Shown one piece after another: positions 8,554 to 12,903 of a stretch of 64,000 nt of DNA. The translations under genes were made by a program, and so were the position numbers. The notes beneath the pieces were generated by a model, which did no database searches, was not told the origin of the DNA, and saw only the letters and a program-made list of their open reading frames with translations. Source of the stretch: an uncultured Mycoplasmatota bacterium (lineage in GTDB: Bacteria; Bacillota_I; Bacilli_A; RF39; UBA660). Position 1 is the first letter of the stretch, and each line of letters opens with the position of its first letter. The stretch is taken from the NCBI GenBank assembly GCA_947642475.1, contig CANRSQ010000001.1, positions 3,991 to 67,990 of the forward strand. The letters run 5' to 3'.

Positions 8554-9780
8554 TTATTTAACTTTACCAATAAAATATTTCTTTTTACCTCTTTTTACTA
8601 CTAAGATTTCATTATCAATTGTGATATCTTTAGTTATATTATAATTTTCATCGGTTATTTTTTCTTCGTTGATTGTTATACTTCCAGCATTTATGAATTC
8701 TCTTGCTTCTCTTTTGCTTGAGGCTATATTTGCTTCTACTAACATATCAACTATGTTTTTATTTTCTTCGGTTTCGAATGTAGGAACGCCTTTGAAAATG
8801 TCATTTATTTCGTCTTTTGTTAGTTCTTTTACTTTTCCACTGAATAAGGCTTCACTCATTTTTTGTGCTTTTTCAGCTTCTTCTTTTCCATGTAGGAAAG
8901 TAACTATTTCTGTGGCAAGTATTTTTTGAGCTTGTCTTAATTCTGGTTTTTCTTTATGTTCTTTTTCGATTTTTTCTATTTCTTCTTTGGTTAGGAAGGT
9001 AAATATTTTTAAGTAATCTATAACCATATCATCTTCTGAATTTAATAGGTATTGATAGATTTCATATGATGATGTTTTATTTTTATCAAGCCAGTAAGCG
9101 TTACCTTCACTTTTTCCGAATTTTTTACCGTTTTTATCGGTTACTAGTGGCATTGTAAATCCATAGGCTTCTTTACCTTCTTTTTTTCTAATTAAATCTA
9201 TTCCAGCGGTTATATTTCCCCATTGGTCAGATCCTGCACATTGCATGGTACAGTTTTTTGTTTGATAAAGGTGAAGAAAGTCTAGGGCTTGCATAATCAT
9301 GTAAGAAAATTCTGTATAGGTTATTCCAGTATCTAATCTTCTTCTTATGATATCTTTATCTAACATGTAGTTGATATTAAAGTATTTTCCATAGTCTCTT
9401 AAGAAATCTATAAAGTTTATGTCTTTACACCAATCGTAGTTATTAACAATTTCGAATCCGAAAAGATCTTGTACTTGTTTTTTTAGTGATTTAAAGTTTT
9501 GTTCTATTTGTTCTACTGGTTGCATTTGTCTTTCTTCGGTTGGTCTTGGATCACCTATTCTTCCTGTGGCTCCACCTATTAGTAATATTGGGTGGTGGCC
9601 TCCTTTTTCTAATCTTTTACTGATTAAAAAACTTGAAAGATGACCTAGATGAAGGCTGTCGGCAGTTGGGTCGGTTCCGATATAAAAGGTTAGACCACCG
9701 TTATTTATTTTTTCTTCTAGGTCTTCTCCGGCTTCATCTTTTATTAAACCACGCCATTTTAGTTCTTCATATAATGTCAT
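8554..9780 (-). CDS. tyrS: Tyrosine--tRNA ligase
   Basis: HLGHL (HIGH) and KFGKS (KMSKS) motifs. C-terminal S4 domain. Start assigned to the ATG at 9780 with a GAGGAGG RBS. The ORF track extends to 9831. Confidence 0.9.
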   Translation of the reverse strand: MTLYEELKWRGLIKDEAGEDLEEKINNGGLTFYIGTDPTADSLHLGHLSSFLISKRLEKGGHHPILLIGGATGRIGDPRPTEERQMQPVEQIEQNFKSLKKQVQDLFGFEIVNNYDWCKDINFIDFLRDYGKYFNINYMLDKDIIRRRLDTGITYTEFSYMIMQALDFLHLYQTKNCTMQCAGSDQWGNITAGIDLIRKKEGKEAYGFTMPLVTDKNGKKFGKSEGNAYWLDKNKTSSYEIYQYLLNSEDDMVIDYLKIFTFLTKEEIEKIEKEHKEKPELRQAQKILATEIVTFLHGKEEAEKAQKMSEALFSGKVKELTKDEINDIFKGVPTFETEENKNIVDMLVEANIASSKREAREFINAGSITINEEKITDENYNITKDITIDNEILVVKRGKKKYFIGKVK

Positions 9781-9781
9781 T

Positions 9782-10474
9782 TTATTCCTCCTCACAGTCG
9801 CAGTTTTCACAGTGGCAGTCTTCACACTCACATTGATGAGAGGCGATTTCTACGCCACTACTTGTTCCTAGTCTAGTGGCTCCTGCTTTTATTAATTCTT
9901 CTGCTTGTTTTCTGGTTTTAATTCCACCTGATGCTTTTATTTCTAAAACTTCGTTTTTGTTTTTATTTATTATTTTTACGTCTTCTACTGATGCTCCTCT
10001 ACTTCCAAAACCGGTTGATGTTTTAATGAAGTTTACGAATGTTTCGTTGCATATTTCGGTCATTTTTTTGATTTCTTCTTTGGTTAAAAGTGATGTTTCG
10101 ATAATAACTTTTAATGTTTTACCATCGATAGAGTCTCTTATTTCTTCGATTTCTGATTTTACATAGTCATAGTCTTTATCTTTTAAAGCTCCTACGTTTA
10201 TTACCATATCTATTTCGTCTACACCATTTTCTATGGCATCTATGGCTTCAAAGGCTTTTGTTTTTGGGGTATTCATTCCTAATGGGAATCCGATTACTGT
10301 ACATACTCCTACATTTGAATCTTCTAGCAATTCTTTTGCGAGCGTAACATAGCATGGATGAACACAAACGGTTTCAAAGTTATATTCCATAGCCTCTTTA
10401 CATAATTTAGCGATGTCTTCACTTGTGGCATCCATTTTTAGATTTGTGTGGTCAATATATTTGTTTATTTCCAT
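9782..10474 (-). CDS. deoC: Deoxyribose-phosphate aldolase with Cys/His-rich C-terminal tail
   Basis: IDHTNLK, KVIIETSLL and FIKTSTGF DeoC motifs. Extra C-terminal SHQCECEDCHCENCDCEEE. Its stop abuts the tyrS start. Confidence 0.8.
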   Translation of the reverse strand: MEINKYIDHTNLKMDATSEDIAKLCKEAMEYNFETVCVHPCYVTLAKELLEDSNVGVCTVIGFPLGMNTPKTKAFEAIDAIENGVDEIDMVINVGALKDKDYDYVKSEIEEIRDSIDGKTLKVIIETSLLTKEEIKKMTEICNETFVNFIKTSTGFGSRGASVEDVKIINKNKNEVLEIKASGGIKTRKQAEELIKAGATRLGTSSGVEIASHQCECEDCHCENCDCEEE

Positions 10475-10479
10475 ATTTA

Positions 10480-10700
10480 TTCCTCCTTTTTTAATAAAAA
10501 AATACTATGAATGTAAGGACGTTTTGAACGTGGTACCACCTTACTTCCATAGTATTCTATGCTTATTATCTGTTAACGGAGATTAACCGTTTTGACTCCA
10601 AATATGTATTTCATTAATTAATCTTGGTTAGCTTTCATCATCCGCTAACTTTCTAATTACTAATTAATTAATTACTGGGTATTTTTCTTCATCAATTAAT
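10480..10700 (-). promoter_or_regulatory. T-box riboswitch leader upstream of deoC-tyrS
   Basis: Minus strand reads GGAAGUAAGGUGGUACCACG, a T-box consensus-like sequence, followed by a terminator hairpin (GGAAGTAAGG...CCTTAC) and a U-run directly upstream of the deoC RBS. Confidence 0.7.
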
Positions 10701-10703
10701 AAA

Positions 10704-10732
10704 ACTATAACATAACTAGTTTGTTTCGTCAA
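10704..10732 (-). promoter_or_regulatory. Promoter TTGACG-17-TATAGT driving the T-box leader
   Basis: Hexamers read on the minus strand. The -35 overlaps the toxN stop codon. Confidence 0.55.
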
Positions 10733-11247
10733 CTTTTTATTGTTAAATTATTATACTCATTGCATTTTTCTTCTAGCAATTTAAAATTGCAACATCTATC
10801 CATAATATTTTTATTTAGTTTTCCACAATTATACAAATCGTATAATTTTTTTGATTTATTCTTTATTGACTTATAATTTTCATTAAGCCATAGACGTTGT
10901 TCTTCTAATAATTTAATATATTTTCTTTCTAAATTATTAATACTTATTTTATCTAAATCTAGTAGTTTATAGTTACTAGGCATGACTGGTATCATATTAT
11001 TAAAATTTACTGCTCCTAATTCACCATTTTTTATTTTTAAAAAGTCCAGTGTGTTTTTCATTTTCAGGTGCTTAGGCTTTGGACTTGTTAGTGGTGCGAA
11101 ATATTCATATTTTCCAATATTAAACAAAACTCCTATAAATGGTCTTAAGTCTTTCTCATTTTTGTTGTAGGCTACCTTTTTATCATACTTTCTTAAATAA
11201 TCACAATATTCTGCATTAACTTTTACAATTTTTAAATTTAATATCAT
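10729..11247 (-). CDS. toxN: ToxN/AbiQ-family type III toxin (endoribonuclease)
   Basis: FIGVLFNIGKYEYFAPLTSPKPKH aligns to the ToxN FIGIVLEIQGHKYLAPLTSPKKWH core. NMIPVM, LLDLD and CNFKLLEEK also align. The GGGGGA RBS favours the third Met (11247). Confidence 0.8.
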   Translation of the reverse strand: MILNLKIVKVNAEYCDYLRKYDKKVAYNKNEKDLRPFIGVLFNIGKYEYFAPLTSPKPKHLKMKNTLDFLKIKNGELGAVNFNNMIPVMPSNYKLLDLDKISINNLERKYIKLLEEQRLWLNENYKSIKNKSKKLYDLYNCGKLNKNIMDRCCNFKLLEEKCNEYNNLTIKS

Positions 11248-11321
11248 TTCCATTCCCCCTTACCGCTATATTTACTACATGTTAATTATATAATTATTCA
11301 TTACACTTGTCAATTGCTTTT

Positions 11322-11362
11322 TGTTAATTTAAAAGAAAAGACTAGAGTTTAGTCTCTAGTCT
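11322..11362 (-). terminator. Rho-independent terminator between the RNA repeats and toxN
   Basis: AGACTAGAG / CTCTAGTCT stem followed by TTTTCTTTT on the minus strand. This matches the ToxIN arrangement. Confidence 0.65.
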
Positions 11363-11370
11363 ACTTTTTT

Positions 11371-11479
11371 AACTCCCAATTTAATGGCTGGGTTCACCGC
11401 TTTTTTAAGTCCCGATTTAATGGCTGGGTTCACCGCTTTTTTAAGTCCCGATTTTACGGCTGGGTTCACCGCTTTTTTT
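11371..11479 (-). ncRNA. toxI: ToxI-like antitoxin RNA: three tandem 36-nt repeats
   Basis: Units AAGTCCCGATTTAATGGCTGGGTTCACCGCTTTTTT x3 with minor variants, directly upstream of the terminator and toxN on the same strand. Confidence 0.75.
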
Positions 11480-11534
11480 ATGCATAATAATTTATGCACT
11501 TATAGTGTACTAATATTTGGGCAAAAAGTCAATT

Positions 11535-11978
11535 TTATTTTTTAAATATTATTAATTTACTTAGTATATAATTCATAGCCACAACGACAAATTGAACGAT
11601 TATTTTGGCTATTGTATCATTTATGTGCATTAAACTATACATGATATACATCATGGCCATATCGACTAATAATGAAGCGATTCTAGCTGATACGAAATTA
11701 AATATTTCTTTTATTTGCATTTTTCCTTTGGTTTTACTTTTGAAAACCCATATTCTATTTGTTATATAGGCAAAAGCAACAGCGCATATCCATGAAAGGA
11801 TATTGGCAATTTGAATATCTAGGTCGGTTTTTTGTGGGAAAAGTATATTAGCAAAGAAAATATATGTCCCAAAAGAAACTACGGTTGTTAAAACGCCAAA
11901 GAATAAATAACTGATTATTTCTTCATATTTTTTATATAGTTTTTTTATTTTGTTTATCATTGTTTTTTCCCTTTTCAT
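11535..11978 (-). CDS. GtrA-family membrane protein (polysaccharide-lipid flippase-like)
   Basis: About 140 aa with 4 TM helices and a GtrA-like profile. Overlaps the GT2 gene end. Confidence 0.65.
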   Translation of the reverse strand: MKREKTMINKIKKLYKKYEEIISYLFFGVLTTVVSFGTYIFFANILFPQKTDLDIQIANILSWICAVAFAYITNRIWVFKSKTKGKMQIKEIFNFVSARIASLLVDMAMMYIMYSLMHINDTIAKIIVQFVVVAMNYILSKLIIFKK

Positions 11979-12903
11979 TTGTTAGTATTTCTCTTGTAAT
12001 ATAGACTGGTCTATTTTTTGTTTCAACGTAAGTTCGCGCTAGATATTCACCGATAATTCCAATACTTAATAATTGGACACCACCTAATAATAGGATAAGG
12101 GTTACGATGGTTGCATAACCTTCGGTATCGATTCCATAAAATATTTTTTCTATTAGGACTACTACTAAATATATTAATGAAAGTAATGAAACTATTATAC
12201 CTAAAATTGTTGCAAATCTAAGTGGAACAGTTGTGAATGAAACGATTCCTTCGATAGCGTATTTAAATAATTTATAAAATGACCATTTTGAGGTTCCATC
12301 ATTACGAGCCTCTACATCATAAGTCATATAACAGTTATTGAATCCTACCCATGAGAAAATTCCTTTTGAGAAACGATAGTATTCTTGCATTTCTAATATT
12401 GCATCTACCATGTTTCTTCTGAATGTTCTAAAGTCACTGGCACCCATAACAAATTCTGTTTCAGACATTCCGTTTATTATTTTATAGAATTTATTTTTAA
12501 AGAATGTTAAAACTTTACTTTCTTTTCTTCGTTCTTGATAGGCAACTACTGAATCATATTCTTGATTTTCATCTAAGATTTCTACCATTTTTACAACGTA
12601 ATCTGGTCTTTGTTGTAAATCGGCATCGATGATTGTTACATAATCTCCTTGGGCTTCTTTTAATCCAGCATATATTCCGGCTTCTTTACCAAAGTTTCTA
12701 GAAAAATTGATTATTTTAATATTTTGATCTGTTTCTTCTAATAATTCTTTTAATTTTCCTATTGTATTATCTTTACTACCATCATTTATGAAAATTATTT
12801 CGTAATCTTGTATTTGATTTTTAAATGTGTTTTTTACTGTTTCTGCGAAAAGTTTTACATTTCCTTCTTCATTATAACAAGGAACTACTAATGATAACTT
12901 CAT
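11932..12903 (-). CDS. Polyprenyl-phosphate glycosyltransferase (GT2, GtrB/CsbB-like)
   Basis: VVPCYNEE...INDGSKDNT GT2 motifs plus two C-terminal TM helices. Confidence 0.8.
   Translation of the reverse strand: MKLSLVVPCYNEEGNVKLFAETVKNTFKNQIQDYEIIFINDGSKDNTIGKLKELLEETDQNIKIINFSRNFGKEAGIYAGLKEAQGDYVTIIDADLQQRPDYVVKMVEILDENQEYDSVVAYQERRKESKVLTFFKNKFYKIINGMSETEFVMGASDFRTFRRNMVDAILEMQEYYRFSKGIFSWVGFNNCYMTYDVEARNDGTSKWSFYKLFKYAIEGIVSFTTVPLRFATILGIIVSLLSLIYLVVVLIEKIFYGIDTEGYATIVTLILLLGGVQLLSIGIIGEYLARTYVETKNRPVYITREILTNEKGKNNDKQNKKTI

Follow-up and report, generated by a model that had tools for sequence, protein, structure and literature searches.

A probable chromosomal ToxIN-family type III toxin–antitoxin cassette inserted upstream of a T-box promoter

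[quoted passage not shown] An array of 36-nt repeats, an intrinsic terminator and a gene for a ToxN/AbiQ-family protein follow one another in that order. The protein has conserved the catalytic residues of its family and its gene is under purifying selection, the repeats are conserved and covary among related loci, and the cassette is inserted into a core region of the chromosome. A type III architecture had been proposed in a preliminary description of this DNA, and both the order of the parts and the matches to Pfam, PADLOC and PDB entries bear this out. The locus also shows the features listed by Blower et al. (2012; PMC3401426), namely a ToxN homologue, a repeat array and a terminator directly upstream of the toxin, as well as a consensus match to a promoter upstream of the repeats, which these authors preferred but did not strictly require. 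Its 36-nt unit, 3.2 copies and 172-aa toxin fall within the ranges given for the toxIN family (units of 31-62 nt, 1.9-5.6 copies and a mean toxin of 168 aa; PMC3401426).

From this anatomy and from characterised ToxIN systems, we infer how the cassette would work, from cleavage site and ring assembly to toxicity, rescue by the repeats and phage defence. A promoter right after gtrA would transcribe a short hairpin leader followed by the three toxI repeats of 36 nt, and the intrinsic terminator would stop most of these transcripts, leaving the antitoxin RNA in excess. The toxin gene, toxN, would be expressed through terminator read-through, from its own consensus promoter past the terminator, or by both routes. 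As a sequence-specific endoribonuclease, ToxN would cleave the precursor in the A-tracts between units. Each 36-nt unit would then fold into an H-type pseudoknot, with helix 1 formed by GGU/GCC, helix 2 by CCC(A)/(U)GGG, and an A-rich loop crossing helix 1, and these units would bind ToxN head-to-tail in a closed, inactive protein–RNA ring. ToxI would be unstable, and once its synthesis stops, for example through phage shut-off of host transcription, ToxN would be freed, cut A-rich RNAs and arrest the cell, such that the infection is aborted. Shut-off of host transcription followed by ToxI decay is also the published model of activation (PMC11951105). Only one feature of the cassette is unusual, a second promoter predicted before the toxin gene from a perfect consensus match; it is otherwise typical, and in itself the locus is a routine defence or toxin–antitoxin cassette.

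The toxin and its known relatives

Evidence from Pfam, the PDB, an alignment of catalytic residues and dN/dS indicates that toxN (10729-11247, minus strand) encodes a 172-aa endoribonuclease of the ToxN/AbiQ family. The open reading frame as a whole spans 10729-11253, or 174 aa. However, the GGGGG ribosome-binding site (11259-11255) lies 7 nt from the second ATG and only 1 nt from the first, and the second ATG, at 11247, is therefore most likely the real start. On look-up in public assemblies, no record of the 174-aa form was found; the 172-aa product alone is on record.

A profile HMM search supports the earlier suggestion that the core of this reading frame has the ToxN/AbiQ fold. The protein matches the Pfam family ToxN_toxin (PF13958) with an E-value of 5.9e-48 and a score of 163.5 bits, against a cut-off of 25, and covers the full profile (positions 1-159 of 159). 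No other family was matched in the Pfam search. The PADLOC AbiQ model also matches (E 2.2e-37), while NCBIfam holds no matching model. Four relatives with solved structures were recovered from the PDB, the best being 4ATO, ToxN_Bt from B. thuringiensis (E 1.4e-24), followed by 2XD0 (ToxN_Pa, 2.1e-17), 7D8O (ToxN_Ec, 1e-16) and 4GLK (AbiQ, 1.1e-9). Homologues have already been annotated automatically by the NCBI pipeline as 'type III toxin-antitoxin system ToxN/AbiQ family toxin'.

The reading frame also contains the motif FIGVLFNIGKYEYFAPLTSPKPKH, which aligns to the active-site strand of the solved ToxN structures. The catalytic residues of ToxN are K33, T52, S53 and K55 (PMC8860590), to which R35, T54, S55 and K57 of the window protein align (172-aa numbering). 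The K-to-R change at the catalytic lysine has a precedent, as it occurs in E. coli clusters 4 and 5 (PMC8860590). R35, S55 and K57 never vary among 34 relatives of the window protein; at position 54, 3 of the 34 have Ala and most have Ser or Thr.

Several characterised systems can be set beside the window. ToxIN_Bt (B. thuringiensis pAW63, 4ATO, RF02519) has the closest solved toxin, and the window protein is ~38% identical to Bacillus plasmid ToxN. This system likewise has ~3 repeats and a terminator before the toxin, and the A-run between units in the window matches its A/AAAA cleavage specificity (PMC5086642). The two differ in that the ToxIN_Bt unit is 34 nt long rather than 36, and in that ToxIN_Bt is plasmid-borne whereas the window locus is chromosomal. 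ToxIN_Pa and ToxIN_Ec (from pECA1039 of Pectobacterium atrosepticum and from E. coli) belong to the same protein family and share the 36-nt unit. In contrast to the window, they have 5.5 repeats and a single promoter, are cleaved at AA/AU and GAAAU rather than in an A-run, and are found on plasmids of Proteobacteria.

More distant systems share the general arrangement. AbiQ/antiQ, an abortive-infection system on plasmid pSRQ900 of Lactococcus lactis, has 2.8 copies of a 35-nt repeat and is cleaved at A/AAA (PMC5086642). The E-value of 1.1e-9 marks the solved AbiQ (4GLK) as only a distant relative of the window protein, and its catalytic Ser51 corresponds to Thr54 in the window, a position at which most relatives of the window protein have Ser. 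CptIN and TenpIN, which make up the remaining two type III families, also have the order of repeats, terminator and toxin, and in both a processed pseudoknot RNA inhibits the RNase, but their repeats are longer (means of 45 and 51 nt; PMC3401426).

Predicted promoters, terminator and the possible control of toxN

A putative toxI promoter, TTGACT-17-TACACT (11504-11532, minus strand), begins 2 nt past the gtrA stop codon. It was located by a consensus scan, and its match of 9/12 suggests a promoter function; syntenic relatives (L003 and L089) carry TTGACA-17-TATATT at the equivalent position. Directly before the first repeat, folding and a palindrome search identified a leader hairpin (GUGCAUAA-AUUA-UUAUGCAU; 11480-11499, minus strand), which is paired in both the MFE and the centroid folds of the precursor. 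Relatives carry a comparable UGCAUA...UAUGCA element at this position, and the hairpin may act as a 5' stabiliser.

Downstream of the repeats, a terminator scan identified a rho-independent terminator, AGACUAGAG-ACUAAA-CUCUAGUCU followed by UUUCUUUU (11331-11362, minus strand). Its hairpin (11362-11339), with a 6-nt loop and a stem of 9 bp of which 4 are G-C pairs, is followed by TTTCTTTT and forms the main structure in the precursor's centroid fold. Two terminator-like sites were found between 10400 and 12000, against 0.7 expected, and both are this one palindromic hairpin read on two strands. The terminators of relatives read GAUUAGAG/CUCUAAUC; in the window, a U-A pair of this stem is replaced by a compensatory C-G. 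The preliminary description had placed such a terminator between the reading frame and three abutting 36-nt repeats on the minus strand; both elements were found again, with coordinates agreeing to within a few bases.

Between the terminator and toxN lies a candidate internal promoter, TTGACA-17-TATAAT (11285-11313, minus strand). It matches the sigma-70 consensus at 12/12 positions, as no other site in the 64 kb does (0.03 perfect matches expected), and by this measure the toxI promoter upstream is the weaker of the two. The internal promoter sits in a gap of ~75 nt between terminator and ribosome-binding site. ToxIN_Bt, by contrast, has almost no such gap, and in four canonical, reference-type loci (L083-L086) the distance is only ~10-25 nt, which leaves no room for a promoter. 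Type III loci have been described as bicistronic operons with a single promoter, in which the terminator sets the ratio of toxin to antitoxin (PMC5086642). Judged by its consensus, a perfect promoter before toxN does not fit this model of a single promoter and read-through.

One alternative to the standard model is therefore a ToxIN system with uncoupled transcription, in which two promoters, and possibly a repressor acting on the internal one, would set the toxI:toxN ratio, and in which the toxin of some relatives would be repressed by LexA and inducible by DNA damage. The odds of this reading appear about even. It draws on consensus matches, which recur at the same internal place in related loci: 17 of 80 have promoters of at least 10/12 there, and many others have a conserved TTGTAT-17-TATAAT. 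However, ~20 related loci have a short spacer with no promoter, so the internal promoter is not essential to the clade.

The possible link to DNA damage comes from the spacer of the internal promoter. In ~10 related loci, this spacer contains (G/A)AAC-N4-GTT(C/T) with up to two mismatches (0.73 expected, or ~14x the background rate), and in 4 loci with at most one mismatch (0.03 expected), although these counts come from related loci of shared ancestry and are thus not independent. The motif resembles the LexA (Cheo) box of Gram-positive bacteria. A LexA-like box was looked for in the window's own internal promoter and was not found, which counts against this part of the reading for the window itself. 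A repressor palindrome around the same promoter was also considered, but was only 70% complementary, AT-rich and unconvincing. The more specific proposal that the toxin gene of this clade acquired its own promoter past the terminator, uncoupling its transcription, and that the toxin is induced by DNA damage in the ~10 relatives with a LexA-like palindrome, is possible but doubtful. Within the literature library that was searched, no paper describing an internal or LexA-controlled toxN promoter was found. Overall, the internal promoters and LexA-like boxes are a lead suggested by sequence motifs, not a result.

Insertion into a core region

The genes around the cassette are, in order, nusA, ylxR, infB, rbfA, a pilin-like gene, gtrB and gtrA on one side, and the T-box leader, deoC, tyrS, a DUF2207 gene and rpsD on the other. 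Loci of close DeoC relatives were compared with this arrangement, and the alignment shows a ~0.8-kb cassette flanked by the gtrA stop (11535) on one side and by the -35 box of the T-box promoter on the other. In L091 and L092, this slot is empty: gtrB-gtrA are followed by the T-box promoter, leader and deoC-tyrS, with 245 nt before deoC and no toxIN. This empty site confirms that the cassette is an insert, as had been proposed. In other relatives, the slot contains an unrelated 188-aa gene (L093 and L094), another unrelated gene (L088), or a tRNA-editing-domain gene and a 310-aa gene together with toxIN (L003, L089 and L090). The empty site and the alternative cargoes show a recombination hot spot directly upstream of the T-box promoter. 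The idea that this region forms an accessory island did not hold up, as the neighbours are all housekeeping genes and nothing besides the 0.8-kb cassette occupies the slot in the window. Although what lies upstream of the T-box differs among relatives, the slot is not a defence island.

On the right, the cassette is bounded by the predicted host promoter of the T-box leader, TTGACG-17-TG-n-TATAGT (10704-10732, minus strand; 10/12 in the scan, with an extended -10), which aligns with the promoter in the empty-site locus L091 and in L093. The junction at this end, AAAAAGTTGACGAA, is also present in L003, L089 and L095, whose ToxN proteins are 74-80% identical to that of the window. Because they share this right-hand junction, the four copies descend from one insertion. 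A target-site duplication, with AAAA-n-TTGAC at both ends of the cassette, was considered but rejected as unproven; the copy at the left end is the -35 box of the cassette itself and also occurs in L003, where it does not lie beside gtrA.

Variable slots of this kind could also hold the decaying, non-functional remnant of a mobile toxIN cassette, kept by chance, and different cargo in close relatives would agree with this. So would the frameshifted toxN of a related strain (L090), from which it follows that the system can be lost, and the loss of the original toxN stop codon to one inside the host promoter, where its TGA lies within the TTGACG of the -35 box. For the window, however, this explanation is very improbable. 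The reading frame is full length with its catalytic residues intact, all three repeats are 91-100% identical and have kept their pseudoknot pairs, and the identical 172-aa protein is encoded on 7 contigs from different samples. Against syntenic relatives, the dN/dS of toxN is 0.07-0.13, with synonymous sites near saturation. The gene has therefore been maintained by selection, and this purifying selection excludes a remnant.

A scan of one genome per GTDB species for relatives of the window ToxN found close relatives in at least 472 species genomes. The best 80 of these at least 472 all come from uncultured MAGs with labels such as Clostridia or Bacilli, and many are of gut or faecal origin. 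The other 79 loci of the scan carry toxIN in unrelated neighbourhoods, as expected for a mobile cassette.

The antitoxin RNA

The toxI array comprises three full 36-nt antitoxin RNA units with the consensus AAAAAAGCGGUGAACCCAGCCAUUAAAUCGGGACUU (11371-11478, minus strand), delimited with Tandem Repeats Finder and a sequence-only model. In RNA register, the units lie at 11478-11443, 11442-11407 and 11406-11371, and read AAAAAAGCGGUGAACCCAGCC(G/A)U(A/U)AAAU(C/U)GGGA(C/G)UU. Tandem Repeats Finder reports a slightly longer interval, 11364-11478, with a period of 36, 3.2 copies, 94% matches and a score of 202. A separate repeat search likewise returned three copies spaced 36 nt apart, in register and with 91-100% identity, and the sequence-only model (R1) finds exactly three copies in the whole 64-kb window, at 44-45 bits each. 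The partial 0.2 repeat at the end of the array is a fourth A-tract, AAAAAAG (11364-11370, minus strand), which would supply the 3' cleavage site releasing unit 3. In the aligned units of related loci, the A-tract is the most conserved inter-unit element.

Among the best 80 related loci, ~76 have the same repeat consensus, AAAAAAGCGGUGAAYCCAGCCAUUAAAUUGGRACUU, upstream of toxN. Their arrays consist of 2-4 copies, mostly 3.2, of a 34-37-nt repeat, and lie ~100-200 nt upstream of the gene. When viral contigs were scanned for the core of the repeat, one match appeared, in a GC-rich phage tail-fibre gene, which was put down to chance rather than to a phage-borne pseudo-ToxI. That the repeats instead form a short CRISPR-like array or encode a repetitive peptide is hardly credible despite their 36-nt length and a 47-aa ORF (11356-11499) that spans them and reads KKAVNPAIKSGL three times, given that the copies abut without spacers, which rules out CRISPR, that the period is 34, 35, 36 or 37 nt among relatives, so that no reading frame is conserved, that variation follows RNA base-pairing and not codons, and that the array is always upstream of a terminator and a ToxN gene.

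The predicted pseudoknot was examined in 121 unique units. A MAFFT alignment of these placed no gaps in the loop, whose length varies, and misaligned helix 2, and was replaced by anchoring on the invariant CC/GG dinucleotides and by an alignment to the sequence-only model, which is not fitted to structure. In the 120 anchored units, the outer pair of helix 2 forms in 120/120 (U:A 86, C:G 28, U:G 3, G:C 2, A:U 1), with all four Watson-Crick types represented and zero mismatches. At the inner pair, one unit has a compensatory change from A:U to G:C, and copies 1 and 2 of the window have an A.C mismatch. When helix 1 (GGU/GCC) and helix 2 (YCCA/UGGR) are taken together as crossing helices, the paired cells amount to 98.7%, compared with 95.6% in shuffles. 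None of 500 shuffles reaches the observed pairing, and controls with slid partners reach at most 66%.

Helix 1 is almost invariant within the clade, and support for it therefore lies in a handful of divergent loci and in comparisons with other clades. Compensatory variants in divergent loci include GAGU/GCUC, UAGU/ACUA and GGC/GCC. Elsewhere, the helix is represented by GGU/ACC in B. thuringiensis and Fusobacterium, CAGUG/CACUG in C. botulinum and GGUG/CACC in Lactococcus. In addition, loop residues A25 and A26 are invariant in the units of the clade. ToxI has been described as an H-type pseudoknot, with two adenines of its loop packed into stem 1 (PMC8860590), and the ToxI of ToxIN_Pa and ToxIN_Ec has A-minor contacts from the loop. 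These patterns support folding of each clade unit into the H-type pseudoknot that is known from other ToxI RNAs.

This likeness extends to the layout of the unit. A common plan, consisting of an A-run or A-rich junction, GGUG(A), the 5' strand of helix 2, (A/G)CC, a UUAA-containing loop and the 3' strand of helix 2, is found in the repeats of the B. thuringiensis, Fusobacterium, C. botulinum and Lactococcus toxIN loci, as well as in ToxI_Pa, whose sequence was verified on pECA1039. In ToxIN_Bt, it takes the form AAAAA-NN-GGUG-NN-helix 2-(A)CC-loop-helix 2', while ToxIN_Pa and ToxIN_Ec share with the window the motifs GGUGA ... (A/G)CC(U/A)UUAA(G/A)U. As the plan is shared with known ToxI repeats, the window repeat is a homologous ToxI variant. 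The earlier view that its sequence is unrelated to known ToxI is thus refuted, both by the common plan and by the covariation-backed pseudoknot.

Despite this homology, scans with the Rfam ToxI family (RF02519) found no match, whether positions 9500-12500 were searched at E<=1 or just the array at E<=10. The gathering score of this family is 50 bits, and the B. thuringiensis repeats, used as a positive control, score 39-59 bits. Permissive Rfam scans of the array returned RybB, miRNAs and similar matches, which were discarded as noise. The proposal of a distinct ToxI family consequently stands only in the sense that RF02519 misses the array, since the plan of the unit is that of known ToxI.

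In summary, what is new here is modest: the RNA family of this clade is missing from Rfam and is now backed by covariation. The clade is very large, with at least 472 species-level GTDB genomes, and the natural covariation behind the pseudoknot would make it possible to build a new RNA family for its antitoxin. The fusion of the toxN stop codon into a host -35 box at an insertion hot spot is likewise of modest novelty. The recurrent candidate promoter inside the cassette, in some relatives with a LexA-like operator, may add another level to the control of toxN transcription and questions the textbook model of type III loci with a single promoter. [quoted passage not shown]

A variable slot upstream of deoC-tyrS

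The site between gtrA and the T-box promoter, where the toxIN cassette of the window sits, holds at least five different contents among close relatives. It can be empty, or it can carry a 188-aa unknown gene (3108-3674 in L093, a relative with other cargo), a different unknown gene whose product ends in ...KEEIEKLK (1-108 in L088, another such relative), a tRNA-edit gene together with a gene for a 310-aa secreted-looking protein and toxIN (1159-2654 in the toxIN-bearing relative L003), or toxIN only. This slot is a local recombination hot spot.

Downstream of toxN, a T-box leader (10512-10698, minus strand) was matched by Rfam at 85.7 bits (E 1.7e-18), which is below the gathering score of 93. 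Its specifier appears to be UAC (Tyr), within GAAAUACAU, and the leader controls the deoC-tyrS pair rather than tyrS alone. toxN lacks a dedicated terminator, and its transcripts would therefore continue into the T-box leader. The DeoC (deoxyribose-phosphate aldolase) encoded here (9782-10474, minus strand) ends in an unusual C-terminal tail rich in Cys, His and Glu, HQCECEDCHCENCDCEEE, possibly a metal-binding extension. This tail may be absent from many close homologues, since these have lengths of 217-219 aa and align to only ~93% of the query.

Possible regulatory elements of the toxIN cassette

In some related loci, a palindromic (G/A)AAC-N4-GTT(C/T) motif lies inside the spacer of the internal toxN promoter, for example AAACCTATGTTC and GAACATATATTC. 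The motif resembles the Gram-positive LexA (Cheo) box. It occurs in the terminator-toxN interval, ~30-60 nt 5' of the start codon, in the related loci L003, L008, L022, L059, L061, L067, L070, L072, L078, L079 and L081. At two or fewer mismatches, it was observed in ~10 loci versus 0.73 expected. The motif is absent from the window's own internal toxN promoter.

Conserved elements also flank the toxI repeats. A leader hairpin, UGCAUA...UAUGCA (11480-11499, minus strand), separates the toxI promoter from the first repeat and is conserved at the corresponding place in most of the related loci. Its 3' arm is TGCATATAATATTATTGC in many relatives, a sequence that also contains TATAAT, and the hairpin could act as a 5'-end stabiliser or an alternative -10 box. 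The terminator stem GAUUAGAG/CUCUAAUC is conserved among loci whose ToxN identity is only 65-70%, with compensatory GACUAGAG/CUCUAGUC in the window (11339-11362, minus strand), a degree of sequence conservation that would not be expected of a plain terminator.

Toxin truncation and additional modules

Two toxIN-bearing relatives, L089 and L090, are otherwise identical strains that differ by one base deleted from a T-run within toxN of L090 (3233-3574, versus 3232-3750 in L089). The deletion cuts the toxin to 113 aa and leaves the toxI repeats unaffected, reflecting either natural toxin inactivation or an assembly error.

A second, divergent ToxN (37-42% identity), or an additional, unrelated 35-37-nt tandem array, adjoins the first toxIN in some of the related loci (L007 4301-4984, L055 5911-6384, L077 3721-3849 and L053 583-659). 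This suggests tandem stacking of type III systems, each with a different cognate RNA.
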